DNA of 64,000 bases from Phyllobates terribilis. Taxonomy: Eukaryota. Position 1 is the stretch's first letter; the number at the start of each line of letters is the position of its first letter. The stretch covers positions 124,744,001-124,808,000 of the forward strand of contig NW_027362763.1 in NCBI RefSeq assembly GCF_046119375.1, in the 5' to 3' direction. This document shows positions 9,982 to 58,849 of this stretch, one piece after another. A model generated the notes under the pieces. That model had not been told where the DNA came from. It ran no database searches and saw nothing but the letters and a program-made list of their open reading frames with translations. The position numbers and the translations under genes were made by a program.

Positions 9982-10068
9982 TGGGGATTCAACATGGTGG
10001 AATCGACTGTTTCCTGGGACGCGTGGTACACCTGATTTCCACCATAAGTCCCAGAACAGGCTAAACTC

Positions 10069-18334: not shown

Positions 18335-19961
18335 CAGTACAGACCAAAAGTTTGGACACATCTTCTCATTTAAAGATTTTTCTGTATTTTCATGACTATG
18401 AAAATTGTACATTCACATTGAAGGCATCAAAACTATGAATTAACACATGTGGAATTATATACTTAACAAAAAAGTGTGAAATAATTGAAAATATGTCTTA
18501 TATTCTAGGTTCTTCAAAGTAGCCACCATTTGCTTTGATGACTGCTTTGCACACTCTTGGCATTCTCTTGATGAGCTTCAAGAGGTAGTCACCAGAAATG
18601 GTTTTCACTTCACAGGTGTGCCCTGTCAGGTTTAATAAGTGGGATTTCTTGCCTTATAAATGGGGTTGGGACCATCAGTTGTGTTGTGCAGAAGTCTGGT
18701 GGATACACAGCTGATAGTCCTACTGAATAGACTGTTAGAACTTGTATTATGGCAGGAAAAAAGCAGATAAGTAAAGAAAAACGAGTGGCCATCATTACTT
18801 TAAGAAATGAAGGTCAGTCAGTCCGAAAAATTGGGCAAACTTTGAAAGTGTCCCCAAGTGCAGTTGCAAAAACCATCAAGCGCTACAAAGAAACTGGCTC
18901 ACATGAGGACCGCCCCAGGAAAGGAAGACCAAGAGTCACCTCTGCTTCTGAGGATAAGTTTATCCGAGTCACCAGCCTCAGAAATGGCAGGTTAACAGCA
19001 GCTCAGATTAGAGACCAGGTCAATGCCACACAGAGTTCTAGCAGCAGACACATCTCTACAACAACTGTTAAGTGGAGACTTTGTGCAGCAGGCCTTCATG
19101 GTAAAATAGCTGCTAGGAAACCACTGCTAAGGACAGGCAACAAGCAGAAGAGACTTGTTTGGGCTAAAGAACACAAGGAATGGACATTAGACCAGTGGAA
19201 ATCTGTGCTTTGGTCTGATGAGTCCAAATTTGAGATCTTTGGTTCCAACCACTGTGTCTTTGTGCGACGCAGAAAAGGTGAACGGATGGACTCTACATGC
19301 CTGGTTCCCACCGTGAAGCATGGAGGAGGAGGTGTGATGGTGTGGGCATGCTTTGCTGGTGACACTGTTGGGGATTTATTCAAAATTGAAGGCATACTGA
19401 ACCAGCATGGCTACCACAGCATCTTGCAGCGGCATGCTATTCCATCCGGTTTGCGTTTAGTTGGACCATCATTTATTTTTCAAAAGGACAATGATCCCAA
19501 ACACATCTCCAGGCTGTGTAAGGGCTATTTGACCAAGAAGGAGAGTGATGGGGTGCTACGCCAGATGACCTGGCCTCCACAGTCACCAGACCTGAACCCA
19601 TTCTAGATGGTTTGGGATGAGCTGGACCGCAGAGTGAAGGCAAAAGGGCCAACAAGTGCTAAGCATCTCTGGGAACTCCTTCAAGATTGTTGGAAGACCA
19701 TTTCCGGTGACTACCTCTTGAAGCTCATCAAGAGAATGCCAAGAGTGTGCAAAGCAGTCATCAAAGCAAAAGGTGGCTACTCTAAAGAACCTAGAATATA
19801 AGACATATTTTCAGTTGTTTCACAGTTTTTTGTTAAGTATATAATTCCACATGTGTTAATTCATAGTTTTGATGCCTTCAATGTGAATGTACAATTTTCA
19901 TAGTCATAAAAATACAGAAAAATCTTTAAATGAGAAGGTGTGTCCAAACTTTTGGTCTGTA

Positions 19962-20515: not shown

Positions 20516-21876
20516 CATTTCCACATTTTTAAACAATATTAACAACAGTTCTGTCCTCCTTGAAAGAAGCTTTGTTTAAAGTCCTCAGATCATGATTGCA
20601 TGACACGGTCTCTGGTAACAAAACATTAGAGTAATATAAAAAGAGATAAAATTCTGAAGACATCACAGTATGTCCAAACAATGGTAGATACCTTGCTGTA
20701 GATGATACTTTGCTGATAGTCCACTTTGATCGCCAATTTGCCTTTTGCACTTTATTACCTTTTACAAAAATCAGTAATTTTTCAAAATAAAAAAAAACGT
20801 GAATAAAAAAAACAAATTGACAATATAAAAAAAGTGTTTACTTTCCAGAGGATGAAGAAGCGTGGGGGTGGTGGTGGGGTCATATTATTCTAAAAGCTTG
20901 TGTAGCAATTCTGAGAACATGATTTGTCCTCTTTATAGAGAGGCCCTCCAGATCCAGGTAGAGACTTTCCGAGAGAATGAATGAGCCAAAAAAGCATATT
21001 AAATCACTTACAAAAACAAATTATATTGTTGAGTAGGAATGATAAAAGACCCAACATAAACCATGAATTATGATATCTTAGAAGCTATGCAAAAGCTCTC
21101 TTATACCAAGCCGTTAGTGCGAAGGCTGAAGTTCCTGGGCCACTATGGGACTCTATCGAGATAAAGTTAAGTGGCTTCAATTTGTCAAGCCCTCTTATGA
21201 GCTATGAGGCAAGGTCCTTGGCATGTTTTCTTCACCCTGTACTAAAATAAATCTTCTGATTTGGAAATGGGAGAAGCAAGTGATAAACTTCTTTAAGCCA
21301 ACATTAGGTCATCCTAACGTGACCAAAGCCAATGTTAAAACGACAGATGGATTCCATTGGGGAGGTTATGGGTGTCTTAAACTTTTGACTCGTGGAGAAC
21401 TTGGTGGAAAATCAAAATTTGACCGGGTCCCAAAATATGTGAATATGTTTTTAATACTAAAATGTAATAGCAAATGAGAGTGGTTGAGTGCATCAGAAAA
21501 ATGTATCAGGCAATTTCGCTTGGACAGTGTGGTTGAGTTTATGGAACACAACAGGGCACTGTAGGTACTATATCTGTTATCACTATAGGGCACTAAGGTG
21601 TTATCTGCATGGCATAATGGGGTTTTATGGCTGCAGGCACTGTGCTTATAAACTCTATATCGGGTAATAGGGGGCGTTATGGTCAGTATTATAAGGCACT
21701 TTGGCTGTAAGACTTATGGTCCTAGCCATAAAGTTGACATTACATGACCACTGTGGCCACAAGTACTATGGTCAGGGACAGACACGTAGCCTGTGCAGCC
21801 TAACCCAATACACAGGAGCCCAGAGAAAGGAGGGGGCCCAAACTGGACACAGAGGGTTGTAAATAGGTATCCTTTG

Positions 21877-22044
21877 GGGCGCAGTCAGACGGCTGTATAA
21901 ATCGGACCGAGATCGGACTGGCCGGCTCTGCCGATCTGAGCGTGACAGCTGCATAAAAATATATGACGGTCAGGACAGCAGCCGACCAGTCTATGCATTG
22001 CGGTCCGATCTCGGTCTGATTTATACTGCAGTCTGATTGCGCCC
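21877..22044. mobile_element. Palindromic Harbinger-like MITE
   Basis: GGGCGCAGTCAGACGGCTGTATAAATCGGACCGAGATCGGAC pairs with GTCCGATCTCGGTCTGATTTATACTGCAGTCTGATTGCGCCC; followed by TTA. Confidence 0.7.
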
Positions 22045-22591
22045 TTAGTGATAAGTAAATCTAGCAAAATTTAAAATCAGCAGTTCTCTCGAAATTTGGC
22101 CAGAAAATTTGATTCGCAAACAAATGTACATTATTATGATCTCCAGACACCAGAGCATAATAAACATATGTAAAAAATATATACACATGCTCACTTGGCT
22201 TTCAACTCAGGACACAGCCCCGCTTTGGTCCGGTCATCGATGCGGTCTTCACTGGATCATCTTCAGCATCTTCTGCGTTGATTTGACTGTGTTAGAGGAT
22301 GTGACAAGAACCATGAAAATCCCCAGTGCTGTGCATCATTGGTGCAAGAAGACTGCCGCCTACCGTCCAAACGGGACCATGCAGAACCAACCGGAAGAGG
22401 AAGAGTTTCAAGGGGGGTGAGTTTGGATGAAGCACTGAGCTAGGCGACATTGATGACGAGGTTACTGGATGTAAAAGATTTGTGTGCCAAACAGGAGGTG
22501 GATTTGGCGCCAAGAAAGGGAGGGGTCCACATGTGAACTGGGTAAGACACTGGAGCCAAATTGACAGGCGGCAGTAAGAAGTGTGCACCAG

Positions 22592-23465
22592 TGTGGCGCC
22601 CCAGAGGGTTCGACCGCCACAGGAATGCTGCACTTCTTTAATGGAGTGTGGTGTTCCTCCTCTGAGGTAAGGCCGGTGTGATGGTAGTTACCTAGCCTCT
22701 TGCATCCAACACCACATCTCCACCAGAGGGAGCTAGTATGCACTAGGTGCTGCTCCCCTGGTTACAGGGAGCCTGGGGAACACAAAGTGGTAGGAACCAG
22801 TTAGTGGGTGTGGGTGGAGGAACAGTTAGTTAGTTACACTTCTAGTTTCATATTTAATAGAATGCCATCTTTGATCTTGGTCTTCCTGCTGGTTCAAACC
22901 TGATCCTGTGTGGACCTGTCCTTCTTAGTGGTCTTTTTGGTTGCTGTAAAACTACTGTGTGTAATGTGACTCCCGCCTGGGAGTGCAGATCCTGTGTGGG
23001 CCTGCACCGGCATGGGACACAGCCCTCATACCCTGGCCTTGGGACGAGAGGTAGGTTGCAGACAAGGAATGTCTCAACCCGGCCAAGGACCAGGATCAAG
23101 AAGGCCCGGTAGCTTTAGAGTGTGGCTCCCTAGCAAATGGGTCCCGGGGAGGATGCAGACGGAGCGGAGCACGCCACCTGTCCTCGCCTACCTGATCTAT
23201 TCAGAGGGATTCCGGCTGCAAGAGGGGTACCGGCCACCGACACCCGACCTTGTACTCTACTCCAGGACGGGAAAGCCCGGTTAGGCCCTGAGGATTCCGC
23301 CGGGCTTCGGATGGAGAGGAATTGCCACCCGAGCCCTAACATCATTTTCAATGTGACGGCCCTGGGCACGGAACGGGTCCGGGCCACGACTGCATCCCCG
23401 TTCTCAACATCTGACCCGGCCCCGAGTACCCCATCTTCCCAGGGCAGGGCTTGAGAGGCGTCACA
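22592..23465 (+). repeat. 5' LTR of CSD element
   Basis: About 16 substitutions and one 1-bp indel versus 25523-26397 by eye (~98%). Confidence 0.95.
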
Positions 23466-23469
23466 TCAC

Positions 23470-23488
23470 TGGCGTAGTCGGCAGGATT
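23470..23488 (+). other. Primer-binding site, tRNA-Ser
   Basis: TGGCGTAGTCGGCAGGATT is complementary to the 3' 19 nt of vertebrate tRNA-Ser(AGA) (AATCCTGCCGACTACG-CCA). Confidence 0.9.
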
Positions 23489-23852
23489 GCGTGCCCGCAG
23501 CAACGGAAGAAGATTGCCCATTGCTACCGGGTACTGCGCGTCTTTTTCAATAGACTGTCGTTTTTCACTTAAAATGGCGCCCGCCCAAGAAGAACGGACG
23601 CCATAATGTGCAGAAAAGACTGACTTTGTACACCTCCCATCGTGGGCTGGGCTCCCGCTTGGCGCCAAAAATGTGGACTGCCCCTTCCATCAGAGACTGT
23701 CCGTGGGTTAATGCCCGTCAAACTGGATGGGCTGAACGAAGGCGGGCCTGTCAGCATGCCGCCCAGGAACCGCCCCGAAAGAGGAGGAAGAAGAAGCAAA
23801 GCAACAAGGTGCGGCCATTGCAGTTGGAGTTTGGCAGCGAACGGAGAAGGTC

Positions 23853-24947
23853 ATGGATGACCCTGGAGAACCAAGCCATGCGACTGCTGCACCCAGTCCA
23901 GGCCCTTCACCCGGAGGAGAGTCTAGCGGCAGTGTGTTGACACCGGGAGACTTCGAGTTTCTTAACAGGGAGGCTCCAGAGCTTGCAAGGAGGCAGAAGA
24001 AGGCCCAGGAGGCGGCGACGGCTGTGTGGAAAGCAGAGATGCTGCAGCGGATCCGAGACCGCCGCCGAGGAGAGGAGGCTCCGGAAGCAGTCGGCCCGGA
24101 GGTCGAGGTGGAAACCGACCTGACGGCAGGTGAGGAGGCAACCCCTGCCCCGGCTGCGGAGCCCTCGGAGCTGATCCTGGACCTCATGGCGGAGTATGTA
24201 CATCCCCAAACTGTCACCTGGGAGCAGGCGCTGGCTCCTGAGCTGCAAGCGGCGGCTATCGGTGGGAATTTGCACTGCCCCAAAAGCTCTCTAATGGAGG
24301 TGCCTGGAGTTGCGGAGGAGACTACTGCCTCCAACCCGGACTGGTCCGCTCTACTAGAGGACACTCAGCAGCCCGTTCTGACCCCGCTACCTGCCCCGGC
24401 GGTGACCTGGCCCAAGGCCGAAGAGTGGGCCTGGGAAAACCAGGGGGGTGACCTGATGGGCTTCCCGTGGGAGACCGCAGCTGAAGCGCAGAGGAGGAGC
24501 CAATGGTGCAGTGATCAGGTCCTCCAGCTGGCACGGGAGTGACGTCGGCGGGAGCAAAGCTGCGAGCGCCTCGAAGTCCGGACCAAGGCTTCCAAGACTC
24601 GGGCACGACAGGAGGAGGCTACCCATCCCGGTCCCCGGTATGAGGGCAAGGTTGTGCGATTTCACCATGAGGCGGGGTGGGGGTTTATCCGGTGTCCCAT
24701 GTTCCAGGACGATGTGTTCGTCAGCAGGAGGGACGTCGAGCCGCGCCTTAAGAAAGGACACCCCGGCCGGAACATCTTCCCGGGCGACACAGTGACTTTC
24801 ACTCGCCACCAGGGGGAGCGTGGGTGGTACGCCCTGGACGTCTGCAAAGTGTCTGGGAGTGACGCCACCCCCTCCTCAGCCTCAGGTGACCGGCTAGCCT
24901 CTGTCGGGAGGAATGAGCTCTTCCCTCCACGTGAGCCCCAAGTCTAA
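23853..24947 (+). pseudogene. 364-codon ORF: acidic/Pro-Ala-rich N-terminus plus C-terminal cold-shock domain; one in-frame TGA at 24540-24542
   Basis: Track ORFs 23853-24542 and 24654-24947 share a frame and are separated only by TGA. The C-terminal YEGKVVRF..GWGFI..DDVFVS..GDTVTF..GWYALDV matches the CSD pattern. Confidence 0.75.
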
Positions 24948-25522
24948 AGCAGCCCCCCCCCGGCTGCTGTTGTAGTTGTTTGAAGTTTAATTAAATGCTG
25001 CTATTTTATGTTTACCTTTTCTTATAGAGACTTTGGTCCCTGCGGACTATGGCAGGAGGCGGACTGCATTGTAAATAGTTATGCATCTATTTAGGTGCTC
25101 CCTATTGGTTTTATACAAAACCGTGCCTACTTTCTACCTCAGACCTCAGAAGCAAAACCTGTCTGGAGTGGCTTTTGTGGGGGTCCAACTCTGGATCTTC
25201 ATGCCCTGCAGCCACCCCAGGGCCCACGTAGAGGGTTTAGGGCAGGTCCCTCTTGCTACTGAACTGACCGTCGTCACCTTTAAGCAGTCCGCTGTCTTGA
25301 TCAAAAAGTCTCTTGTCTTAATTTATAATTTTGCACTTTTATGCCTTTGTACTTTTATAATTTTATACTTTGCACTTTTGTACTTTTATAACTGTTATGC
25401 AACGTTACAAGAAATGTGCCTCCCATGAAGGGATGATAGTTTTACTTGTTATATAAAAAGGAATTTTCCTGGGTGCTATTCCTTTGCAGCTCGCGGACGT
25501 GCTGTGTTTTACCAGGGGGGAA

Positions 25523-26397
25523 TGTGGCGCCCCTGAGGGTTCGACCGCCACAGGAATGCTGCACTTCTTTAATGGAGTGTGGTGTTCCTCCTCTGAGGTA
25601 AGGCCGGTATGATGGTAGTTACCTAGCCTCTTGCATCCAACACCACATCTCCACCAGAGGGAGCTAGTATGCACTAGGTGCTGCTCCCCTGGTTACAGGG
25701 AGCCTGGGGAACACAAAGTGGTAGGAACCAGTTAGTGGGTGTGGGTGGAGGAACAGTTAGTTAGTTACACTTCTAATTTCATATTTAATAGAATGCCATC
25801 TTTGATCTTGGTCTTTCTGCTGGTTCAAACCTGGTCCTGTGTGGACCTGTCCTTCTTAGTGGTCTTTTTGGTTGCTGTAAAACTACTGTGTGTAATGTGA
25901 CTCCCGTCTGGGAGTGCAGATCCTGTGTGGGCCTGCACCGGCAAGGGACACAGCCCTCGTACCCTGGCCTTGGGACGAGAGGTAGGTTGCAGACAAGGAA
26001 TGTCTCAACCCGGCCAAGGACCAGGATCAAGAAGGCCCGGGAGCTTTAGAGTGTGGCTCCCTAGCAAATGGGTCCCGGGGAGGATGCAGACGGAGCGGAG
26101 CATGCCACCTGTCCTCGCCTACCTGATCTATTCAGAGGGATTCCGGCTGCAAGAGGGGTACCGGCCCCCGACACCCGACCTTGTACTCTACGTCCAGGAC
26201 GGGAAAGCTTGGTTAGGCCCTGAGGATCCCGCCGGGCTTCGGATGGAGAGGAATTGCCACCCGAGCCCTAACATCATTTTCAATGTGACGGCCCTGGGCA
26301 CGGAACGGGTCCAGGCCACGACTGCATCCCCGTTCTCAACATCTGACCCGGCTCCGAGTACCCCATCTTCCCAGGGCAGGGCTTGAGAGGCGTCACA
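25523..26397 (+). repeat. 3' LTR of CSD element
   Basis: Direct repeat of 22592-23465, preceded by PPT. Confidence 0.95.
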
Positions 26398-26459
26398 CCA
26401 GTAGGTTGCGGAACACTTGGAAACAGGACCCAGACCAGTACTTGAGTACAGACTACGCC

Positions 26460-26560
26460 CGTCAAGGTCCAAATCCCAGACTTCTGCCAGTCAAGACCCG
26501 AATCCCAGACTTGTGCCGGTCAAGATCCAGAGCCCAGACGATGCCTGTCAAGAGTTGGAG
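26460..26560 (+). repeat. Short ~29-bp tandem repeat (3-4 copies)
   Basis: GTCAAGGTCCAAATCCCAGACTTCTGCCA / GTCAAGACCCGAATCCCAGACTTGTGCCG / GTCAAGATCCAGAGCCCAGACGATGCCT. Confidence 0.6.
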
Positions 26561-27442
26561 CTCAGTCCTCATCTCTTCAGACTGAGGAGACACCCGCCGT
26601 AGGTCAATCACTGAAGATCCGTGAGTAGACCCCACCCGGTAGAGGACGCCTGCGGTGGTGAATGGAAGACGCAAGTGAGCCAGGCTGTCGCTTCCAGCAC
26701 TGACATACGGTACAGGGGTGGACCTAAGCTAGGACAGCAGACAACGAGGGGGGTCAGTTGAAGCGAAGGAGGACCAACGTGCTTTGGTAGACTTTGTCAG
26801 GAGGACTTGCAGCCTAGTGAGAATAACCAGTGATCCCCGCTAGGGCGATTAACACAGGAGGAGCCAGTAAGTTAGCTCCCACGTTAACGAGTGTACAACC
26901 GCTGTCAGACGGTTATGACAGTAAGTAGTCAGAGACTTCCATAATGCATGAGTTGCCAAAGATGATGAAAAATGACAAAGATGGCCCCCTGACCGAATGA
27001 AGATATCAGGTGAGGACAGAGTGAGTATTTTTTCATTTGTTTAACCCCTACTAGACATGCATAAATCCAGAAAAAAGGCCATTGGCTGGAATAAGATTTT
27101 GCTATTCTTATACAAATTGAAACACAAAAAAAATTACAATTCTGGCAAATATGATTTTTTGTGTGAAATTCGATGCAAATTAGATTCACCTCGATGCGAT
27201 TCTTTAATCCGTTTTATCTTGCTTTTCTTGCTGGCCAGCCCTTATCAATCTCTACACTGCTCTTATTGATTATACAGAATCCATATTATTTTAGTCAGCA
27301 AATCACAAAGACGCTTTCATTGACTGAGCTGCTATGATGATGATGGCGTATACTGAGCAGTCTGCTGTCACAGATGGTGGAGCCATTATAGTGGGTCTTG
27401 CAGTTTTCAGCCCTCGTATTCAAATCACAAAACGTTAAGCAC

Positions 27443-30400
27443 TTCACTACCCCAGCCCATCAGGTATGTTACCATTACCCCTTCACTGCCCTAGCCCATC
27501 AGGAATGTTACCATTACCCCTTCACTGCCTCAGCCCATCAGGGATGTTACCATTACCCCTTCACTGCCTAAGCCCATCAGGAATGTTACCATTACCCCTT
27601 CACTGCCTCAGCCCATCAGGGATGTTACCATTACCCCTTCACTGCTCCAGCCCATCAGGGATGTTACCATTACCCCTTCACTGCTCCAGCCCATCAGGGA
27701 TGTTACCATTACCCCTTCCCTGCCCCAGCCCATCAGGTATGTTACCATTACCCTTTCACTGCCTCAGCCCATCAGGAATGTTACCATTACCCCTTCACTG
27801 CCTCAGCCCATCAGGTATGTTACCATTACCCCTTCACTGCCCAAGCCCATCAGGAATGTTACCATTACCCCTTCACTGCCTCAGCCCATCAGGGATGTTA
27901 CCATCACCCCTTCACTGCTCCAGCCCATCAGGGATGTTACCATTACCCCTTCACTGCTCCAGCCCATCAGGGATGTTACCATTACCCCTTCACTGCCTCA
28001 GCCCATCAGGAATGTTACCATTACCCCTTCACTGCCCCAGCCCATCAGGGATGTTACCATTACCCCTTCACTGCCCCAGCCCATCAGGGATGTTACCATT
28101 ACCCCTTCACTGCTCCAGTCCATCGGAGATGTTACCAGTACCCCTTCACTTCCCCAGCCCATCAAGAATGTTACCATTACCCCTTCACTGCCCCAGTCCA
28201 TCAGGGATGTTACCATTAACCCTTCACTGCCCCAGCCTATCAGGGATGTTACCATTACCCCTTCACTGCCCCAGTCCATCAGAGATGTTACCAGTACCCC
28301 TTCACTTCCCCAGCCCATCAGGAATATTACCATTACCCCTTCACTGCCCCAGTCCATCAGGGATGTTACCATTAACCCTTCCCTGCCCCAGCACATCAGG
28401 GATGTTACCATTACCCCTTCACTTCCCCAGCCCATCAGGAATGTTACCATCACCCCTTCACTGCTCCAGCCCATCAGGGATGTTACCATTACCCCTTCAC
28501 TGCTCCAGCCCATCAGGGATGTTACCATTACCCCTTCACTGCCTCAGCCCATCAGGAATGTTACCATTACCCCTTCACTGCCCCAGTCCATCAGGAATGT
28601 TACCATCACCCCTTCACTGCTCCAGCCCATCAGGGATGTTACCATTACCCCTTCACTGCTCCAGCCCATCAGGGATGTTACCATTACCCCTTCACTGCCT
28701 CAGCCCATCAGGAATGTTACCATTACCCCTTCACTGCCCCAGCCCATCAGGGATGTTACCATTACCCCTTCACTGCCCCAGCCCATCAGGGATGTTACCA
28801 TTACCCCTTCACTGCCCCAGCCCATCAGGGATGTTACCATTACCCCTTCACTGCTCCAGTCCATCGGAGATGTTACCAGTACCCCTTCACTTCCCCAGCC
28901 CATCAAGAATGTTACCATTACCCCTTCACTGCCCCAGTCCATCAGGGTTGTTACCATTAACCCTTCACTGCCCCAGCCTATCAGGGATGTTACCATTACC
29001 CCTTCACTGCCCCAGTCCATCAGAGATGTTACCAGTACCCCTTCACTTCCCCAGCCCATCAGGAATATTACCATTACCCCTTCACTGCCCCAGTCCATCA
29101 GGGATATTACCATTAACCCTTCCCTGCCCCAGCACATCAGGGATGTTACCATTACCCCTTCACTTCCCCAGCCCATCAGGAATGTTACCATTACCCCTTC
29201 ACTGCCCCTGCCCATCAAGAATGTTACCATTACCCCTTCACTGCCCCTGCCCATCAAGAATGTTACCATTACCCCTTCACTGCCTCAGCCCATCAGGGAT
29301 GTTACCATTACCCCTTCACTGCCCCAGCACATCAGGAATGTTATAATTACCCCTTCACTGCCTCAGCCCATCAGGAATGTTACCATTACCCCTTCACTGT
29401 CTCAGCCCATCAGGGATGTTACCATTACCCCTTCACAGCCTCATCCCATCAGGGATGTTACCATTACCCCTTCACTGCCCCAGCACATCAGGAATGTTAT
29501 AATTACCCCTTCACTGCCTCAGCCCATCAGGAATGTTACCATTACCCCTTCACTGTCTCAGCCCATCAGGGATGTTACCATTACCCCTTCACTGCCTCAG
29601 CCCATCAGGGATGTTACCATTACCCCTTCACTGCACCAGCACATCAGGAATGTTATAATTACCCCTTTACTATCTCAACCCATCAGGAATGTTACCATTA
29701 CCCCTTCACTGTCTCAGCCCATCAGGGATGTTACCATTACTCCTTCACTGCCCCAGCACATCAGGAATGTTATAATTACCCCTTCACTGCCTCAGCCCAT
29801 CAGGAATGTTATAATTACCCCTTCACTGTCTCAGCCCATCAGGGATGTTACCATTACCCCTTCATTGCCCCAGCCCATCAGGGAAGTTACCATTACCCCT
29901 TCACTGCCTTAGCCCATCAGGAATGTTACCATTACCCCTTCACTGCTCCAGCCCATCAGGGAAGTTACCATTTCACCTTCACTGCCTTAGCCCATCAGGA
30001 ATGTTACCATTACCCCTTCACTGCCTCAGCCTATCAGGAATGTTACCATTACCCCTTCACTGCCCCAGCCCATCAGGGAAGTTACCATTACCCCTTCACT
30101 GCCTTAGCCCATCAGGAATGTTACCATTACCCCTTCACTGTCGCAGCCCATCAGGGATGTTACCATTACTCCTTCACTGCCTCAGCCCATCAGGGATGTT
30201 ACCATTACCTCTTTACTGCACCAGCACATCAGGAATGTTACCATTACCCCTTCCCTGCCCCAGCCCATCAGGAATGTTACCATTACCCCTTCACTGCCCC
30301 CCCAGCCCATCAGGGATGTTAGCATTACCCCTTCACTTCCCCAGCCCATCAGGAATGTTACCATTCTCCTTCATTGCCCCAGCCCATCAGGGATGTTACC

Positions 30401-33400
30401 ATTACCCCTTCACTGCCCCAGTCTATCAGGAATGTTACCATTCTCCTTCACTGCCCCAGCCCATCAGCGATGTTACCATTATCCCCTTCACTGCCCCAGC
30501 CCATCAGGAATGTTGCCATTACCCCTTCACTGCCCCAGCCCATCAGGGATGTTACCATTACCCCTTCACTGCCCTAGCCCATCAGGAATGTTACCATTAC
30601 CCCTTCACTGCCCCAGCCCATCAGGAATGTTACCATTACCCCTTCACTGCCTCAGTCCATCAGGGATGTTACCATTACCCCTTCATTGCCCCAGCCCATC
30701 AGGGATGTTACCATTACCCCTTCACTGCCCCAGCCCATTAGGGATGTTACCATTACCCCTTTACATCCCCAGTCCATCAGAAATGTTACCATTAACCCTT
30801 CGCTGCCCCAGTCCATCAGAAATAATACCTTTACCCCTTCTCTGCCCCAGCCCATCAGGGAGGTTACCATTACCCCTTCACTGCCCCAGCCCATCAGAAA
30901 TGTTACCATTACCCCTTCACAGCCTCAGCCCATCAGGAATGTTACCATTACCCCTTCACTGCTCCAGCCCATCAGGGATGTTTCCATTACTCCTTCACTG
31001 CCTCAGCCCATCAGGGATGTTACGATTACCTTTTTACTGCCCCAGCACATCAGGAATGTTACCATTACCCCTTCCCTGCCCCAGTCCATCAGGGATGTTA
31101 CCATTACCCCTTCACTGCCCCAGCCCATCAGGAATGTTACCATTACCCCTTCACTGCCCCAGCCCATCAAGAATGTTACCATTACCCCTTCACTGCTTCA
31201 GCCCATCAGGGATGTTAGCATTACCCCTTCACTTCCCCAGCCCATCAGGAATGTTACCATTCTCCTTCATTGCCCCAGCCCATCAGGGATGTTACCAATA
31301 CCCCTTCACTGCCCCAGCCCATCAGGGATGTTACCAATACCCCTTCACTGCCCCAGCCCATCAGGAATGTTACCATTACCCCTTCACTGCCCCAGCCCAT
31401 CAAGAATGTTACCATTACCCCTTCACTGCTTCAGCCCATCAGGGATGTTAGCATTACCCCTTTACTTCCCCAGCCCATCAGGAATGTTAAAATTCTCCTT
31501 CAATGCCCCAGCCCATCAGGAATGTTACCATTACCCCTTCACTGCCCCAGCCCATCAGGGAAGTTACCATTACCCCTTCACTGCCTTAGCCCATCAGGAA
31601 TGTTACCATTACCCCTTCACTGTCGCAGCCCATCAGGGATGTTACCATTACTCCTTCACTGCCTCAGCCCATCAGGGATGTTACCATTACCTCTTTACTG
31701 CCCCAGCACATCAGGAATGTTACCATTACCCCTTCCCTGCCCCAGCCCATCAGGAATGTTACCATTACCCCTTCACTGCCCCCCCAGCCCATCAGGGATG
31801 TTAGCATTACCCCTTCACTTCCCCAGCCCATCAGGAATGTTACCATTCTCCTTCATTGCCCCAGCCCATCAGGGATGTTACCATCACCCCTTCACTGCAA
31901 CAGTCTATCAGGAATGTTACCATTCTCCTTCACTGCCCCAGCCCATCAGCGATGTTACCATTATCCCCTTCACTGCCCCAGCCCATCAGGAATGTTGCCA
32001 TTACCCCTTCACTGTCCCAGCCCATCAGGGATGTTACCATTACCCCTTCACTGCCCTAGCCCATCAGGAATGTTACCATTACCCCTTCACTGCCCCAGCC
32101 CATCAGGAATGTTACCATTACCCCTTCACTGCCTCAGTCCATCAGGGATGTTACCATTACCCCTTCATTGCCCCAGCCCATCAGGGATGTTACCATTACC
32201 CCTTCACTGCCCCAGCCCATTAGGGATGTTACCATTACCCCTTTACTTCCCCAGTCCATCAGAAATGTTACCATTAACCCTTCGCTGCCCCAGTCCATCA
32301 GAAATAATACCTTTACCCCTTCTCTGCCCCAGCCCATCAGGGAGGTTACCATTACCCCTTCACTGCCCCAGCCCATCAGAAATGTTACCATTACCCCTTC
32401 ACAGCCTCAGCCCATCAGGAATGTTACCATTACCCCTTCACTGCTCCAGCCCATCAGGGATGTTTCCATTACTCCTTCACTGCCTCAGCCCATCAGGGAT
32501 GTTACGATTACCTTTTTACTGCCCCAGCACATCAGGAATGTTACCATTACCCCTTCCCTGCCCCAGTCCATCAGGGATGTTACCATTACCCCTTCACTGC
32601 CCCAGCCCATCAGGAATGTTACCATTACCCCTTCACTGCCCCAGCCCATCAAGAATGTTACCATTACCCCTTCACTGCTTCAGCCCATCAGGGATGTTAG
32701 CATTACCCCTTCACTTCCCCAGCCCATCAGGAATGTTACCATTCTCCTTCATTGCCCCAGCCCATCAGGGATGTTACCAATACCCCTTCACTGCCCCAGC
32801 CCATCAGGGATGTTACCAATACCCCTTCACTGCCCCAGCCCATCAGGAATGTTACCATTACCCCTTCACTGCCCCAGCCCATCAAGAATGTTACCATTAC
32901 CCCTTCACTGCTTCAGCCCATCAGGGATGTTAGCATTACCCCTTTACTTCCCCAGCCCATCAGGAATGTTAAAATTCTCATTCAATGCCCCAGCCCATCA
33001 GGGATGTTACCATTACCCCTTCACTGCCCCAGCCCATCAGGAATGTTGCCATTACCCCTTCACTGCCCCAGCCCATCAGGAATGTTACCATTGCCTCTTT
33101 ACTGCCCCAGCACATGAGGAATGTTATCATTACCCCTTCACTAGCCCAGTCCATCAGCAGTGTTACCATTACCCCTTCACTGCCCCAGCCCATCAGGAAT
33201 GTTACCATTACACCTTCATTGCCCCAGTTCATCAGGAATGTTACCATTACCCCTTCACTGCCCCAGTCCACCAGGAATGTTACCAATACCCCTTCAATGC
33301 CTCAGCCCATCAGGGATGTTACCATTACCCCTTCATTGCCCCAGTTCATCAGGAATGTTACCATTACCCCTTCACTGTATCAGCCCATCAGGAATGTTAC

Positions 33401-48842: not shown

Positions 48843-48850
48843 CCACCAAG

Positions 48851-50944: not shown

Positions 50945-51948
50945 TGACGCGCCCCTGGGCCTGCTGTGTCGCGCAGCGTCTCGCGCACGGGGGCTTACCC
51001 GGAACCGGATCAGATGAGGGTTGTAGTCTCCGAGTGGCGGGGACCCGGTCCGTGCCCAGGGAGTCAAACTCAGTGTGTGGCAGTCTTGATAGATGTTATT
51101 TGAGTGTCGACTACGCCACCCGTTGATTTGCAGCTATGGAGCTGCCGCTGCAGGGCAGACCGCTGAGGCCGGTGTAGAATTGTGCAGCGTGATAGTATAA
51201 CCCCCAACGGGAGGGGTATGGCCTCAGGGCAGCCGACGTGGAAGATGGGGGTAGCAGGAACCACTCAGAGACGGTGCGGTGTAATTCAGGGTCTTTACTG
51301 GTAACAACGATAGACCCTCCCGGAGTACTTGCTAGCGAACGGGGCCTGGTCAGTCCTTGAGCAGATGGGATCTCCCCTGGCCAGGCGGAGTTGTAGGCCT
51401 CCCAAACTGACTGTACTCTTCTGGCTACCTTGCTAGAAGCGGATATAAGTAGCCCACGTCCCTGAGTGTACCGTGTGGTGCTCACCCGTATGGCCGGTGA
51501 CTCGGGGCCTTCTAATGGCTTCCGCTCCACGATGGCGGTGCTGGTCCCACGCGTGTGACCGTGCCTTCGGGTTTCTGGGCCTGAGGACCTGAAATCCCCT
51601 GCCGGTCGGCTTCTGCTGCTGGGTAAGAGTTAGTCCCCACAGCCTCGGACGCCGGGTCCGGTAAGAAAGCTTCTCAGTCAGGGCGAGCTCTGCAGCTGCC
51701 AGCCCCTGACTCGTAGTAATATTGCTCCCACTGAGCTTCTGCTGTTTCTTCCTATGACTGTTTCTCGTCTCTACTTCTTCTCTACTCCTAACCCTGCCTC
51801 AGCCCCGGGTTTATATAGGGGAAGTTTTTCCCCTCCCAAGACTGGGCAGGAGGTGTGGCATGCACAGGATCCCTGACCAAAGGACCTCCCACCTGCTCTC
51901 AGACATAACATTACATTACTGTGGAAACCAGACCCCTGGGGTGCCACA
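50945..51948 (-). repeat. 3' LTR
   Basis: 99.6% identical to 57846-58849. Confidence 0.97.
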
Positions 51949-52310
51949 TTCCCCCCTAGTGAAATTTAGTACTCCGGGACTAAACATATTTTAGAAAAAC
52001 ATAACAAGATATAACAACAATAATAGTACAATAAGAAGAAACACATAAAGGTGGTCACGGCATGTCCGTAACCGGGTGCAGTCTTTGAAGAAAAGCAAGG
52101 TGTCCATTTCACCAAAACAGGGAGACGTAACCAGGTAGGGGTTTGTCCTGCCCCGAGTCCTTAACAGTCTTTAGTCCGTCCTGGGTTACGCTCCAACTAT
52201 GTACAAAGGATTCCCGGTAAATCCACCAAAGACTCCTATAAATAACTCGAAACATAAAATTACACACAAGCAACTATAAACAGGTAAACATTATAAAATA
52301 ATTTAAACAT

Positions 52311-55300
52311 TTAGATCCTCCAACGTGCGGGTAACTGGCCTCTAGTGGCCCTAGTGGACCTACAGAGCTGACTGTCTGGCCCTGAACTACAGGGTGTAGG
52401 AGCTGTCAAGGGTAAACTGGGCAGCTGTCTACGGGCCCTTTGGCTCACTAGGGGTATGGCAGGCTCACTATAAGCAGAGGGTTGATTTTCCGGGTCTGCT
52501 TGTGTAGAGTCTTCTGCCTCCTGGACCGGCTGTTCTTCCAGCTCTACCGGTTGCTCCGTAGGTACTTGGGATGATGGTTGGAGGAAGGTGAGTACGGATA
52601 CCACAACTGCACCATTGACTTGAGTCCAAGACCGAGGGAAGTCTCCGAGCACAGTACTAACCATATCTTCCCTTTCCTCTACGGGTCGATGGTCTTCTTG
52701 TTCCTCTTCAGGGTTCCGTAGCTGCTCAGGACACTTTTTCAGGTGATCCCGGGATACAATGGCTATGGTTTCCCCTCCGTCTTTACTGATGGTACAGACC
52801 TTCGGGTTCTCGTGGCTTGAGGGCAGCACGGTGTACGGGTCCTTCTCCCACTGGTCGTCCAACTTGTGGAGCCGTCTTTTCCTCTTCAAGACCTGCTCTC
52901 CGGGTACCAGGGGAACAGCGGGAGCATACTGGTTATAAGTTTTCTCTTGTCTTTCCCTAGCTTGACAGAGACTTCGCTCCACACTCTCCTGTACTTTCCG
53001 GTACTGCTGCTGCCTCTCTGTGTCCCAGTCTGCTTCTGGTGAAGTGTCCTCGGGTGTCAGGACTCCCATTTCCAGGTCAACAGGTAACTTACCAGGTCTC
53101 GCCCTCATTAGGTAAGCCGGGGTACAGTTGGTGGAACCTACCGGGATGTGGTTGTATAGGTCCACCAGATCGGGCAGCTTCTTAGGCCACAGACTGCGTT
53201 CTTCCAGGGGCAACGTTTTCAGAAGATCCATTACCACCTGGTTCATTTTCTCACAAAGTCCATTAGTTTGCGGATGATAGGGTGTCGTCCTTATCTTCCG
53301 GCAGCCATACAGATTGCAGAATTCCTGGAAGATCTCTGCTTCAAAGGCAGGTCCCTGGTCCGTCAGCACTTGGTCCGGGTACCCGTGTGGACGGCAGAAG
53401 TGCTGCTGGAAGGCTCTAGCTGCTGTTTGAGCCGTTAAGTCCTTGACGGGGACGACTACCAAGAACCGGGAGTAATGATCCACGATGGTTAGCGCGTAGA
53501 CGTAGCCACTTCTGCTTGGGGTCAGTTTTACATGATCCAAGGCTACCAGTTCCAACGGCTGCCGGGTGACGATGGACTGCAGGGGAGTTTTCTGGCTGGC
53601 ACGGTCCTTCCTTCTTAGGTTGCACGGGCCACAGTCTCTGCACCACCTCTCGATGGTTCCCCTCATGCCTACCCAGTGGAACCGCCCGCGCAGTAGGAAC
53701 TCCAGCTTCTTCCATCCGAAGTGTCCAGCCCCGTCGTGGTATGCCTCCATCACCATGGCTGCGTCTCTTCGTGGCACCACTACTTGCCAGATTAGGTCAT
53801 GCGTCCGGGAGTTAACCATTCGGCGGCACAACTTCCCCTTATAAAGGAACAGTCGACTCTTCTCAGCCCACAGTTGCTTGGCTTCTTCCGGAGCGTCTGG
53901 GTCAAGGCGAGCCTCTGGCCGAGTCAGCATCTCCTTTACCAGCCGGACGGCAGGGTCGCTGTCTTGCGTTTCCGCCCAGTTGTAGTGAGGCAAGGGGTTA
54001 AACGTAGCGGCTTGCTTACTCCCTACCCGGTGGGAACACTGGATAGTCCCATGACGGTGGAACGCAGGGAGTTCGACTTCTTCCAGTTCCTCTGGATCTT
54101 CTCCTATGTCCAGTAGATTTGGCATCCTGGACAGGGCGTCCGCGTTGGTATTGGAGCGTCCTACCCGGTATTTGATTGTGAACTCGTAGTTGGACAGACG
54201 AGCCATCCATCTCTGCTCTAGGGCACCGAGTCTTGCTGTGTCCAGGTGTGTCAACGGGTTGTTATTCGTGTACACGATGAACCGGGAAGAAGCGAGGTAG
54301 TGCTTAAAGCGTTCGGTGACTGCCCACACCACTGCCAGGAACTCTAGCTTAAAGGAGCTGTAATTCTCCGGGTTTCTCTCGGTGGGTCGCAGTTTTCGGC
54401 TGGCGTAAGCGATTACTCGTTCTTTCCCCTGCTGGATCTGGGACAGCACAGCTCCTAGCCCGATGTTACTTGCGTCAGTGTAGAGGATAAAGGGCTGGCT
54501 GTAATCGGGGTACGCCAGGATTTCATCCCCCGTGAGGGCCATCTTCAGCTGGCGGAAGGACTCTTCTTCTAACTTCTCCCATCTGAAGGGCGGCTTCTGG
54601 TTCTTGGCCTTCCAGGACTGGCCTATCAGGAGGTCCTGCATAGGAGCTGCCTTTTTGGTGAAACCGGGGATGAATCTGCGGTAATAGCCTACCAACCCAA
54701 GGAACTGCCGCACTTCCTTTATACTGGAGGGACTTGGCCATTCCTTAATTGCGGTGATCTTATCAGGGTCGGGAGCCACTCTGTCAGCGCTCACCACGTG
54801 TCCCAGGTACTGCACCTTTGGCTTCAGGAGGTGACACTTAGAGGGTTTCACCTTCAGGCCGTAACTTGCCAGGGCTTCGAACACTTCCGCCAGATGTTTC
54901 AGGTGGTCCTCATAAGTCTTGGAATATACGATGACATCGTCCAGGTACAACAGGACCGTCTCGAAGTTTTTGTGTCCCAGACAGCACTCCATTAATCGTT
55001 GGAAGGTTCCGGGTGCGTTACAAAGTCCAAACGGCATACAGGTAAACTCGCTAAGTCCCATCGGGGTGGTGAATGCGGTCTTCTCCCGGTCCGCCTCTGC
55101 TACAGGAACCTGCCAGTACCCGCTAGTGAGATCCAAGGTAGAGAAGAAGTTAGCAGATCTTAAAGCAGCCAAAGACTCCTCTATCCTTGGTAAAGGGTAC
55201 GCATCCTTGTGTGTGATACGATTGATTTTCCGGTAATCTACACACATCCTCATAGTGTTGTCTTTCTTTTTGACTAAAACTAGTGGGGCTGCCCAGGGGC

Positions 55301-55346
55301 TACAGCTATCCCGGATTACCCCAGCCTCCTTCATGTCTCTAAGCAT
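52311..55346 (-). CDS. pol: Pol (RT-RNase H-integrase), 1011 aa from internal Met; frame is open back to ~55435
   Basis: MPFGLCNAPGTFQR, LYLDDV, LYTDAS, FKLEFLAV, NADALSR, H...H...CRDCGPC, LVALDH, LTDQG, NGLCEKMN; no internal stops. Confidence 0.95.
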   Translation of the reverse strand: MLRDMKEAGVIRDSCSPWAAPLVLVKKKDNTMRMCVDYRKINRITHKDAYPLPRIEESLAALRSANFFSTLDLTSGYWQVPVAEADREKTAFTTPMGLSEFTCMPFGLCNAPGTFQRLMECCLGHKNFETVLLYLDDVIVYSKTYEDHLKHLAEVFEALASYGLKVKPSKCHLLKPKVQYLGHVVSADRVAPDPDKITAIKEWPSPSSIKEVRQFLGLVGYYRRFIPGFTKKAAPMQDLLIGQSWKAKNQKPPFRWEKLEEESFRQLKMALTGDEILAYPDYSQPFILYTDASNIGLGAVLSQIQQGKERVIAYASRKLRPTERNPENYSSFKLEFLAVVWAVTERFKHYLASSRFIVYTNNNPLTHLDTARLGALEQRWMARLSNYEFTIKYRVGRSNTNADALSRMPNLLDIGEDPEELEEVELPAFHRHGTIQCSHRVGSKQAATFNPLPHYNWAETQDSDPAVRLVKEMLTRPEARLDPDAPEEAKQLWAEKSRLFLYKGKLCRRMVNSRTHDLIWQVVVPRRDAAMVMEAYHDGAGHFGWKKLEFLLRGRFHWVGMRGTIERWCRDCGPCNLRRKDRASQKTPLQSIVTRQPLELVALDHVKLTPSRSGYVYALTIVDHYSRFLVVVPVKDLTAQTAARAFQQHFCRPHGYPDQVLTDQGPAFEAEIFQEFCNLYGCRKIRTTPYHPQTNGLCEKMNQVVMDLLKTLPLEERSLWPKKLPDLVDLYNHIPVGSTNCTPAYLMRARPGKLPVDLEMGVLTPEDTSPEADWDTERQQQYRKVQESVERSLCQARERQEKTYNQYAPAVPLVPGEQVLKRKRRLHKLDDQWEKDPYTVLPSSHENPKVCTISKDGGETIAIVSRDHLKKCPEQLRNPEEEQEDHRPVEEREDMVSTVLGDFPRSWTQVNGAVVVSVLTFLQPSSQVPTEQPVELEEQPVQEAEDSTQADPENQPSAYSEPAIPLVSQRARRQLPSLPLTAPTPCSSGPDSQLCRSTRATRGQLPARWRI

Positions 55347-55432
55347 CCCCTTGGCGTGTTGGTAATGTGCAGGGGGTACGGGTCGATACCTCTCTTTTAT
55401 GGGAGGATGATCTCCCGTGGGGATGCGGTGTT

Positions 55433-57403
55433 CTACCCCTTAACTCGCCCGAAGTCTAACGGGTGTTTACTAAACACTCTCTCATACTCTTGAACCACCC
55501 GGTAGACTCCCTGTTTCTGGTGGGAGGGAGTGGAGTCAGTTCCCAAGTGTAGTTGCTGACACCAATCCTCCATTACTTTCTTAGAGCCGTTACCTTCCTC
55601 CGGGTGAGATGGAGGCAAGGGTTCCACAGACTGTATAGAGTTTTGGTTGATGGTATATAATTTGGCTAGCGTGGCATACCGGGGTAGGTATACTTCCCTC
55701 TTCCCGATATTTATTAGGCGAACGGGCACCCTCCCATGGCGTACATTAACCACCCCCCGTGCTGTCAAAATGGTGGGCCTACTGTCTGAGTAAACTGGTT
55801 CTACCATTGCCTGGTAATCCCTACCTCTCGGACCAATAGCTGCCCGGCACCAAATCATCATTTCACTTTTTGGGGGCATGGCAATAGGGAAAGGGTCACA
55901 CATTCTTACGCTACCAATCTCACCGCCGGAGAGTTCCACCTGTTGCCGTCGCATCAGTGCCCGGATCTCTTTCTGGAGCACTCGCTGCTCGCCGGAGCTG
56001 GCGTTCTTGGCAACCTGTTGTAAAAGGAAAATCACCTCTGCAAGACAATTTTCAATTACATTAGTTCCTAGCGTTATCTTTGGGTGACTCTCGTGTTTGT
56101 CAATGTCTACAATAATCAGTCCCTGTGCTGCCAGTTCGACTCTACCAATTTTAATGGTCGCCTCTTTAAATCCGATCTGTGGCACGGGCTGACCATTGCT
56201 GGCGATGATACTCAAGTCGTCGTCAGGGTAGCGGGTTATATCCGAGTCATTCCAGTACTGCTTGAAGAGCACGTACGGGATGGTGGTGACCTGTGACCCG
56301 GTGTCCAGTAGGGCACTCATAGGGATGCCATCCAGTACCACAGGCAAGACTGGATGTCCTCCGACATATTTGTCGCGCCAGTTCGATGGGCCTGGTGATC
56401 TTTTTCCTGGGGGTTGGCCCTCTACCCCCAGGTTGTGCCAGTTTAAAGGACAGTACCTTGCCATATGTCCGGGTTGATTGCAGCGGCGGCAGATGGGTCG
56501 TCCGTCCTCGTTGTACCGGTCACTGGGTCTTCCTCTGGCCGGTGGGGTCCTCCTTGGTCGACGCCACGGGATGTCCTCCGGTCCGGATGCCAGCTGGATC
56601 TTCCCTGGAGTGGAAGCCTGTAAAGACTGCACAGTTCGGGTTAACGCAGCAACGCTTTTAGCTAGCTCTTGGACCTGATGGTGCAGGTCTGGAGCCGGGT
56701 CATTGTTCAAAGCCTGCGCATCAGCCCCTACAGGCCCTGCCGACAAGGGCGCCGCCTCCTGGTGGTAAGTGATAGCTGGGCGCCTGTGGGTCACAACACC
56801 ATCCGGTGCCGGTTCTCGGAGCACCCGGATGGCTCTGTCCTTGAACTGTGCAAATCCCAGATGAGGGTCCTGTAGGGCCATTGCCCGCAACTGGGTTCGG
56901 TGGGCATTGCAATATAAACCCTCTATAAATTGTTGAGTCAACAGCCTGTCCTTGTCTCCCACGCCGTCAGGGTCGGTCTGCTTAACGGCTCTCAGGGCCT
57001 CTTGTAGGTTCAGGGCATAGTCCCTTATACTCTCATGGGCCCGCTGTTTGCACCCGTAGAATCTAAGCTTGATCTCGGCTGAGGTGCGGGTATCAAAGGT
57101 GTCCCTCAGCCGGGTTAGTATCCCTGCGACAGTCCTCCCCCCAGGTGGCCAGGACTTTACCTCCCTTCGGGCTGCTCCGGTTAATTGGGCCACCAGGATG
57201 CTCACTTTTTGCTCTTCTGTGAGGGGGTACACCTGGAAGAGGCTATCCAGCCTTTCTCTAAAGTCCTGCAGGGTATGTGACTCCCCTGAGTACTGGGGTA
57301 GCCAGGCTGCCCCCGGGATATAGGGCATGGTGAAAGGCATGACCGCGACAGCGGTGGCGCTGGCGGGGGTTGAAGCGGTGAAGCTCTCCTCCGTATCCGA
57401 CAT
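55433..57403 (-). CDS. gag: Gag-protease (656 aa), ends early by a 1-bp frameshift at start of RT
   Basis: Capsid-like WLPQYSGE...LRDTF, CCHC knuckle CRRCNQPGHMARYC, protease LLDTGSQVTTI, then FSKHPLDFG (pre-RT). Confidence 0.9.
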   Translation of the reverse strand: MSDTEESFTASTPASATAVAVMPFTMPYIPGAAWLPQYSGESHTLQDFRERLDSLFQVYPLTEEQKVSILVAQLTGAARREVKSWPPGGRTVAGILTRLRDTFDTRTSAEIKLRFYGCKQRAHESIRDYALNLQEALRAVKQTDPDGVGDKDRLLTQQFIEGLYCNAHRTQLRAMALQDPHLGFAQFKDRAIRVLREPAPDGVVTHRRPAITYHQEAAPLSAGPVGADAQALNNDPAPDLHHQVQELAKSVAALTRTVQSLQASTPGKIQLASGPEDIPWRRPRRTPPARGRPSDRYNEDGRPICRRCNQPGHMARYCPLNWHNLGVEGQPPGKRSPGPSNWRDKYVGGHPVLPVVLDGIPMSALLDTGSQVTTIPYVLFKQYWNDSDITRYPDDDLSIIASNGQPVPQIGFKEATIKIGRVELAAQGLIIVDIDKHESHPKITLGTNVIENCLAEVIFLLQQVAKNASSGEQRVLQKEIRALMRRQQVELSGGEIGSVRMCDPFPIAMPPKSEMMIWCRAAIGPRGRDYQAMVEPVYSDSRPTILTARGVVNVRHGRVPVRLINIGKREVYLPRYATLAKLYTINQNSIQSVEPLPPSHPEEGNGSKKVMEDWCQQLHLGTDSTPSHQKQGVYRVVQEYERVFSKHPLDFGRVKG

Positions 57404-57821
57404 CCTTCTCCCCCCTAGTGGACCGTGGCCTACCTTGCGATGATCCTCTTCCGTAGGCCGCGGCTCCGCAGTGGATCGTCAGGGTTGAGGACCTTCCGTT
57501 GCGCTCCGGTGACGTCGGCGTCTGCTGGGCTCCTTCCAGGACCTTACGCAACGTCCGGACGTGAGGCGGGGCTTCAGTTCTCGCGGGCTTTTCGGAGTCC
57601 ACGCTTCTCTTCTTCCCGCGCAGCGTCCTCAAGATGGCGTCCAACGGCGGGAAAACTCCACGGATGGCGGGAAGAAGGCTGAAGATGGCGCCGGATGGCG
57701 GGAATCTTCACAGATGGCGGGAAGAAGGCTGAAAATGGCGCCGGATGGCGGGAATCTTCACCACAGGTGAGTTTGAAAGTCTCTTTTTCAGGCACGCAGT
57801 ACCCGGTGGTTGTGGGCACGA

Positions 57822-57840
57822 AATCCTGCCGACTACGCCA
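57822..57840 (-). other. Primer-binding site, tRNA-Ser
   Basis: Plus strand AATCCTGCCGACTACGCCA equals the tRNA-Ser 3' end; identical to the PBS at 23470-23488. Confidence 0.9.
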
Positions 57841-57845
57841 AAAGT

Positions 57846-58849
57846 TGACGCGCCCCTGGGCCTGCTGTGTCGCGCAGCGTCTCGCGCACGGGGGCTTACC
57901 CGGAACCGGATCAGATGAGGGTTGTAGTCTCCGAGTGGCGGGGACCCGGTCCGTGCCCAGGGAGTCAAACTCAGTGTGTGGCAGTCTTGATAGATGTTAT
58001 TTGAGTGTTGACTACGCCACCCGTTGATTTGCAGCTATGGAGCTGCCGCTGCAGGGCAGACCGCTGAGGCCGGTGTAGAATTGTGCAGCGTGATAGTATA
58101 ACCCCCAACGGGAGGGGTATGGCCTCAGGGCAGCCGACGTGGAAGATGGGGGTAGCAGGAACCACTCAGAGACGGTGCGGTGTAATTCAGGGTCTTTACT
58201 GGTAACAACGATAGACCCTCCCGGAGTACTTGCTAGCGAACGGGGCCTGGTCAGTCCTTGAGCAGATGGGATCTCCCCTGGCCAGGCGGAGTTGTAGGCC
58301 TCCCAAACTGACTGTACTCTTCTGGCTACCTTGCTAGAAGCGGATATAAGTAGCCCACGTCCCTGAGTGTACCGTGTGGTGCTCACCCGTATGGCCGGTG
58401 ACTCGGGGCCTTCTAATGGCTTCCGCTCCACGATGGCGGTGCTGGTCCCACGCGTGTGACCGTGCCTTCGGGTTTCTGGGCCTGAGGACCTGAAATCCCC
58501 TGCCGGTCGGCTTCTGCTGCTGGGTAAGAGTTAGTCCCCACAGCCTCGGACGCCGGGTCCGGTAAGAAAGCTTCTCAGTCAGGGCGAGCTCTGCAGCTGC
58601 CAGCCCCTGACTCGTAGTAATATTGCTCCCACTGAGCTTCTGCTGTTTCTTCCTATGACTGTTTCTCGTCTCTACTTCTTCTCTACTCCTAACCCTGCCT
58701 CAAACCCGGGTTTATATAGGGGAAGTTCTTCCCCTCCCAAGACTGGGCAGGAGGTGTGGCATGCACAGGATCCCTGACCAAAGGACCTCCCACCTGCTCT
58801 CAGACATAACATTACATTACTGTGGAAACCAGACCCCTGGGGTGCCACA
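57846..58849 (-). repeat. 5' LTR
   Basis: Minus strand starts TGTGGCACCCC and ends GGCGCGTCA; PBS follows. Confidence 0.97.
58711..58718 (-). promoter_or_regulatory. TATA box of 5' LTR
   Basis: TATATAAA on minus strand ~130 bp into the LTR; candidate AGTAAA poly(A) signal downstream (plus TTTACT ~58195-58200). Confidence 0.55.

Follow-up and report, generated by a model that had tools for sequence, protein, structure and literature searches.

We analyzed a 64,000-nucleotide (nt) stretch of the genome of the poison frog Phyllobates terribilis (assembly GCF_046119375.1, contig NW_027362763.1, positions 124,744,001 to 124,808,000 of the forward strand), here called the window, to which coordinates refer unless another contig is named. 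Positions 22592 to 26397 hold a long terminal repeat (LTR) retrotransposon whose only gene encodes a protein with a cold-shock domain (CSD) (Table 1). A preliminary description, made from the sequence alone, had read these positions as a complete unit of LTR, primer-binding site, interior, polypurine tract, and LTR, flanked by a CCAG target-site duplication (TSD) and with LTRs about 98% identical. This was confirmed: the two LTRs were identical in 858 of 875 aligned columns (98%), differing by 16 substitutions (12 transitions) and 1 indel, and CCAG was found on both sides. With its paired TG...CA LTRs, a primer-binding site (which we take to be that of tRNA-Ser), a purine tract, and a TSD, the element is a genuine LTR retrotransposon insertion. 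No recognizable protease, reverse transcriptase (RT), or integrase was present in the 2,057-bp interior, as the description had also stated, and the interior and the sampled members of its family showed no gag, protease, RT, RNase H, or integrase.

The gene had been placed at 24543 to 24947. This interval proved to be only the part that follows a premature stop, and the full open reading frame (ORF) covers 23853 to 24947. Sibling copies read through as one continuous frame of about 403 codons from stop to stop, and the ATG matching position 23853 was kept in most of 53 compared copies, giving a 364-amino-acid (aa) product. The first candidate ATG, 12 codons before 23853, was rejected as a start because ATT often stands in its place and stops recur after it. 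An upstream "PPIVG" segment was rejected as part of the ORF because most copies of the window's family have it in another frame and cut off by a shared stop, although sister families keep it in frame. The order of parts in the protein is the same across families: a conserved N-terminal segment, a variable acidic/proline linker of low complexity whose length differs between families, a W..G..LMGF motif, a long charged helix, the CSD, and a variable tail. The upstream 268-aa frame of the window element matched no Pfam family, and a homologue search with the whole protein as a single sequence found nothing.

Table 1. Features of the CSD element and of the Gypsy of the candidate helper family in the window
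Feature	Position	Strand	Remarks
TSD CCAG, left	22588..22591	+	
5' LTR, 874 bp, TG...CA	22592..23465	+	~465 bp of sibling LTRs absent; 3' end has U5 motif in common with Gypsy family
Primer-binding site	23470..23487	+	Identical to that of Gypsy at 50945-58849
Leader	23488..23852	+	Short blocks common to sister CSD families and Gypsy leader
Single ORF	23853..24947	+	364 aa in intact siblings; broken in window copy
Conserved N-terminal segment	23937..24068	+	Helical by inspection; under purifying selection
W..xGxxLMGF motif and predicted 49-residue helix running into CSD	24426..24638	+	Under purifying selection
Premature stop	24540..24542	+	At this codon in window copy only, of 53 compared
CSD (PF00313)	24639..24848	+	Predicted five-strand barrel; canonical Trp and RNP2 His replaced
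3' untranslated region (UTR)	24948..25513	+	Blocks common to CSD families
Polypurine tract	25514..25522	+	Same as in Gypsy family
3' LTR, 875 bp	25523..26397	+	
TSD CCAG, right	26398..26401	+	
Gypsy of candidate helper family	50945..58849	-	gag, protease, RT, RNase H, integrase; LTRs 1004 bp, 99.6% identical; TSD ATAC; no CSD

The window copy itself is best read as dead, given its premature stop, the lack of an ATG before the CSD, and its LTR deletions. No ATG occurs between the stop and the CSD start, which means that simple initiation cannot yield an intact CSD from this copy. Sibling LTRs measure about 1.3 kb, and the same block of about 465 bp is gone from both window LTRs, near 23338 and 26270. 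Since both LTRs lack this block, the element was copied with the deletion already present; the block was either dispensable in cis for one round or lost in the donor. With an LTR divergence of 1.8%, the window copy is older than many sister-family copies, whose LTRs are 99.7 to 100% identical.

The domain at 24639 to 24848 matched the Pfam profile PF00313 with 33 bits (expect value [E] 5.4e-8; curated cutoff, 27), as did 13 of 13 clade members, and its best sequence matches in the PDB were YB-1 and CspB. An AlphaFold2 model of a sibling copy, computed from a 17-sequence alignment, reached a mean predicted local distance difference test score (pLDDT) of 85 and showed a 49-residue helix (residues 23 to 71) followed by five strands. 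Foldseek compared this model with CspC/CspA at target-normalized template-modeling (TM) scores of 0.89 to 0.90 (E. coli CspA, 0.90) and with the YBX1 CSD at 0.75. The profile match and the predicted five-strand barrel together identify the domain as a genuine CSD; a lack of such a hit or barrel, which the preliminary description had named as evidence against its proposal, was thus not what we found. ESM Atlas returned weak leads only (best, 0.82; CSD clusters, 0.80 to 0.81), and a fold search of viral proteins gave only generic CSDs at E<0.001. In profile scores, YBX1/2 ranked best with 32.8 bits, and bacterial CspA followed at 31.3 bits, 1.5 lower; YBX1 aligned over 70 columns with one single-residue gap and about 30% identity. 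These comparisons suggest that a host gene, most likely a Y-box gene, was probably the source of the CSD. CSDE1 was not supported as the donor: in tblastn, neither the retrocopies nor the exons of host CSDE1 matched the element CSD. Elsewhere in the genome (L051/L052, G000:C1:734.43-734.45 Mb; L199/L200, G000:C2:702.79-702.81 Mb), a multi-CSD gene occurs as intronless, fragmented, partly tandem copies together with an apparent intron-containing parent; the intronless copies are presumably CSDE1/UNR retrocopies.

When the frog's own genome was searched with the protein, 36,565 candidates emerged at first look; the 150 that were scored were all 88 to 100% identical. Twenty copies picked for long frames had the same interior (18 full length, 1 truncated, and 1 interrupted), and none had pol. 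Two further samples were chosen without regard to the protein. A probe spanning the LTR end and primer site of the window's family had 670 genome matches; all 30 sampled elements had the CSD-ORF interior and none had gag, which upholds the earlier proposal of a non-autonomous LTR family carrying a CSD. The purine tract/LTR junction of the same family had 914 exact matches, with the CSD upstream in at least 26 of 30 sampled and pol directly upstream in 0 of 30. A Pfam CSD search of the genome led to sister families. Their frames reach 816 aa from stop to stop, they have 4-bp duplications, and their primer site and purine tract are those of the window's family. Their junction had 26,657 exact matches; the CSD was upstream in 26 of 30 sampled, and helix and CSD were intact in 22 of these 26. 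The window's family is thus one branch of a gag-less and pol-less CSD clade of more than 20,000 copies. By junction counts (26,657 x 26/30 + 914 x 26/30), CSD-bearing copies number about 24,000; at about 5 kb each, this is on the order of 1% of the 10.6-Gb genome, a figure extrapolated from samples at the start of one contig. Some copies form head-to-tail arrays with middle LTRs in common and two or three interiors in a row (L044, L045, and L046). About 25 near-identical copies of the window's element lie about 300 kb apart at G000:C9:122.4-131.5 Mb, which suggests a large tandem segmental duplication; similar twins occur on the small contigs C27, C76, C173, and C237.

Homologues of the protein occur in four poison-frog species, P. 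terribilis included. Among the best 150 matches of a profile search of 1.84 billion cluster representatives, 5 were single-domain full or partial matches and the rest were multi-CSD proteins. The five are uncharacterized proteins of Phyllobates terribilis, Ranitomeya variabilis, R. imitator, and Anomaloglossus baeobatrachus (two), and all carry the CSD signature of the window's family. Alignment-based searches gave only frog proteins at strong E values. The CSD motif is kept at 40 to 50% overall identity, both between families and across frog genera; the two frog families with homologues split tens of millions of years ago. Four runs of one study, which are RNA only by guess, consist of contigs only, and have no silent control, covered the window element thinly, which counts neither way; a young sister copy was covered in 30 of 30 bins including the CSD, and without a silent control this also counts neither way.

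Selection on the protein was examined by comparing private with shared variants. Private variants served as a neutral baseline, as a copy mutates neutrally after insertion, while variants shared by three or more copies come mostly from replicating lineages. From 80 loci, 59 remained after removal of overlaps and 53 after removal of twins more than 98.5% identical; CpG sites were excluded from this test, and counts are given as nonsynonymous/synonymous. Over the whole ORF, private variants numbered 301/118 and shared variants 68/111 (p=1.8e-14). The same shift was found in the CSD (45/27 versus 6/23), the long helix (64/23 versus 6/23), and the N-terminal segment (37/6 versus 9/22), whereas neither of the two alternative frames of these copies, nor their leader or 3' UTR, showed such an excess. 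Because most of the 53 copies had been picked by CSD similarity, the test was repeated on copies picked by junction, without regard to the protein; 17 of 30 loci had more than 1,200 bp alignable and entered, and their CSD gave 60/26 versus 6/27 (p=4e-7). In 26 (of 30) copies of the large sister families, the CSD counts were 36/33 versus 12/65 (p=3e-6). Between five subgroups, the ratio of nonsynonymous to synonymous rates (dN/dS) of the CSD was 0.08 to 0.20 in all 10 pairs, compared to 0.23 to 0.39 for the linker. Shared variants are mostly synonymous and private ones are not, which shows that the protein was retained, under purifying selection, along replicating lineages. A neutral or randomly broken ORF in other copies, which the preliminary description had named as evidence against its proposal, was not what we found: the frame is kept, with purifying selection in three samples.

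We next consider the proteins that could move such an element. In the Gypsy of the same window, a young copy, gag and protease share one frame and a stop precedes RT. Five siblings lack this stop; in them, a change of frame occurs near Gag residue 351-369, and protease continues into pol. None of these five full-length siblings has a CSD. The CSD element and this Gypsy agree in their primer site and purine tract, in the start of the LTR, in a U5 motif, and in the 4-bp length of the TSD. One U5-primer junction of 30 to 31 nt occurs 42,850 times in the genome, and 30 sampled occurrences comprised 17 CSD-type interiors, 1 deleted CSD-type interior, 11 with gag, and 1 other. The Gypsy-type purine tract junction had 13,866 matches, with pol upstream in 18 of 20 sampled and the CSD in none. 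Given the lack of a CSD both there and in the five siblings, the CSD elements form a passenger lineage of their own rather than an extra gene of the autonomous family. The signals that mark a non-autonomous partner of a Gypsy family (primer site, purine tract, LTR termini, and TSD length) all agree. By the same criteria as applied to the wheat pair Quinta/Cereba (PMC11302176), we infer that CSD-element RNA is mobilized in trans by Gypsy proteins. At L191 (G000:C1:2267500-2275499), a chimera has a Gypsy-type 5' LTR, a CSD-family interior without the CSD, and then CSD-family LTRs; it could stem from template switching or later recombination and would fit trans-mobilization.

We propose, with about even confidence, that the window element is a disabled copy of a non-autonomous poison-frog clade whose selected CSD protein likely binds its own RNA and helps it to be copied by the related Gypsy. 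The CSD would have come from a host gene, most likely of Y-box type, and the element's RNA would be packaged, reverse transcribed, and integrated by Gypsy proteins in trans. The protein would act mostly in cis, on the RNA that encoded it, which it may protect or chaperone in the germ line, and it could improve the access of that RNA to helper particles; the predicted long helix might be an oligomerization part. The argument for cis action comes from the selection data. Amino acid constraint on many separate replicating lineages suggests that copies with a good protein were preferred as templates, whereas broken copies would spread as readily as intact ones if all copies drew on a common pool of product, so that cis preference is the simplest reading. 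Tentatively, and with clearly less confidence, one may go further and view the clade as a satellite lineage that discarded gag and pol and built a host Y-box-type domain into a cis-acting ribonucleoprotein (RNP) protein, with an RNA that would outcompete the helper's for particles, a strategy like that of L1 ORF1.

Several observations weigh against this proposal. Each of the two unbiased samples held copies without the CSD (4 of 30 in each), and if these were mobilized after the deletion, free-riding would occur. Among 14 copies picked by 3' UTR, the test gave p=0.031 for the CSD and fell short of significance for the ORF as a whole (p=0.078), and p=0.0014 was obtained, from few variants, in the 3' UTR that served as control. 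In the window copy's own three-member subgroup, the dN/dS of the CSD was 0.65. The helper is assigned from common signals only, and LTR similarity to the Gypsy extends over about 70 bp at 70% in the window's family and about 260 to 370 bp at about 75% in the sister families, which also have more leader sequence in common with it; owing to this lesser sharing, a different Gypsy subfamily may be the one with which the window's family is paired. A canonical CSD stacks RNA on a Trp, the RNP1 Phe/Tyr and Phe, and the RNP2 Phe and His. The Trp of the canonical K-W-F was found in 0 of 110 element CSDs and the RNP2 His in 0 of 111; element CSDs thus lack the complete aromatic RNA-stacking surface, and the binding surface must be considered altered. 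For a Y-box origin, the margin in profile score given above is small, and the top Foldseek ranks were bacterial proteins. RNA binding is best called putative, a role as cis-acting RNA chaperone or packaging aid is a best guess, and production of the protein in the germ line is a putative part of the proposal.

The same data bear on other explanations of why the protein is kept. It might act in trans as an anti-silencing or host-mimic factor that competes with Y-box proteins or soaks up small RNAs and so aids passenger and helper alike. By profile, the CSD is closest to YBX1/2, Gypsy transcripts are reported to be abundant in ova of the related poison frog Oophaga pumilio (PMC6278860), and passenger and helper both reach very high copy numbers. 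A freely shared product should, however, spare broken copies, whereas shared variants were constrained in every lineage tested and helix and CSD were intact in most sampled sister copies. This objection has a caveat, in that protein and RNA could be linked if only few copies are active per cell, and we regard trans action as fairly unlikely. We attach a rather low probability to a further reading, in which the CSD has been repurposed as a protein-contact module that, together with the long helix, would tether the RNP to helper Gag or Pol instead of binding RNA in the usual way. With the Trp and the RNP2 His lost, either an altered specificity or such a contact role is conceivable, family-specific residues (R-D, L, G-H, R-H, and G-x-Y) are kept across four frog species, and the predicted long charged helix is fused directly to the barrel. 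Conversely, the domain is basic, and in the 17-sequence alignment RNP1 W-G-F never varies and the RNP2 Phe hardly does.

That the ORF is instead a highly diverged gag with its nucleocapsid replaced by the CSD, the element making or coassembling its own particles in the manner of Quinta or bhikhari, appears improbable. The ORF does lie in the gag position, directly after the shared leader, and has helical parts. However, BLAST of the CSD-element ORF against helper Gag or Pol gave no match below E 0.05, a profile-profile comparison with Gag gave a probability of 0.2% (with a shallow Gag alignment of three sequences), and derivation from Gag/Pol was rejected on these grounds; a capsid Pfam family was found in 0 of 13 clade members, and the region between the helices is disordered looking and too variable for a capsid fold. 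Lastly, the idea that the ORF persists only because translation of a long frame protects the RNA from decay, or as a passenger by recent descent from one master copy, could draw on the variable low-complexity linker and on the choice of the first 20 copies for open frames, but it is very improbable and largely refuted by the selection tests, as constraint acts on amino acids, is strongest in the CSD and helices, is frame specific, holds in samples chosen without regard to the protein, and extends to a motif kept between families and frog genera.

Around the element, a 51-bp inverted repeat lies to the left (21868-22053) and three 29-bp direct repeats to the right (26457-26543), and part of the right flank resembles the LTR of the CSD-family copy L055; the insertion may thus have gone into remnants of older repeats. 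From 27400 to 47400, about 20 kb consist of a tandem repeat with a short unit and a strong C skew, which leaves long open frames on the plus strand, and other minisatellites follow at 47800 to 50500. The window also holds an integrase fragment of another Gypsy-type element (8926-10068, minus strand) and a Tc1-like transposase frame, named by inspection (18731-19606, plus strand).

LTR elements without pol that carry a single ORF are already known: zebrafish bhikhari and Xenopus 1A11/Xretpos encode products that are Gag-like or of unknown fold. None of their ORFs is known to be a CSD. The element protein shares fold and RNP1 motif with YBX1/YBX2 and the CspA family but differs from them in its identity of about 30%, in the replaced Trp and RNP2 His, and in the added long helix and N-terminal helical segment. 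The preliminary description knew of no characterized vertebrate LTR family with this architecture. This holds in that no CSD-only LTR family was found in the literature searched, with most subscription papers outside its coverage, and no "cold shock" passage occurs in the main text of two poison-frog genome papers; it needs amending in that CSD capture has been reported in bird endogenous retroviruses (ERVs) (PMC12287698). According to the section of that paper on them, a CSD is present in 46 bird ERVs, was acquired on several occasions, and varies in position, and these ERVs were classified by the RT that they encode; the section reports no selection test, and two supplement rows give E values of 1e-24 to 1e-25, near canonical. 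Both cases are thus vertebrate LTR elements with a CSD. Unlike those described there, the frog clade has a diverged CSD (E 5e-8) fused into a multipart protein, which is its sole gene, is under purifying selection, and is present in more than 20,000 copies. The wheat pair RLG_Quinta/RLG_Cereba likewise involves an ORF-keeping non-autonomous family with primer site, purine tract, and LTR ends in common with an autonomous Gypsy, in a partnership that lasted tens of millions of years; RLG_Quinta, as presented there, encodes Gag plus an unknown domain, whereas the frog element has a host-type nucleic-acid-binding fold and no detectable Gag (PMC11302176). A selected CSD-only LTR clade was thus not found in print, and the function suggested for its protein is a proposal.

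Non-autonomous LTR elements are usually noncoding or keep gag, and a selected host-type nucleic-acid-binding domain as the only gene constitutes a third passenger route. With it, one can test how a passenger RNA gains the advantage over its helper in packaging, and why coding sequence survives where free-riding is possible. In addition, a set of poison-frog gene models labeled "uncharacterized" can be understood through the clade as probable element proteins. CSD elements outnumber their likely helper by about 2:1, and if the satellite reading is true, they may be a measurable cause of poison-frog genome expansion.

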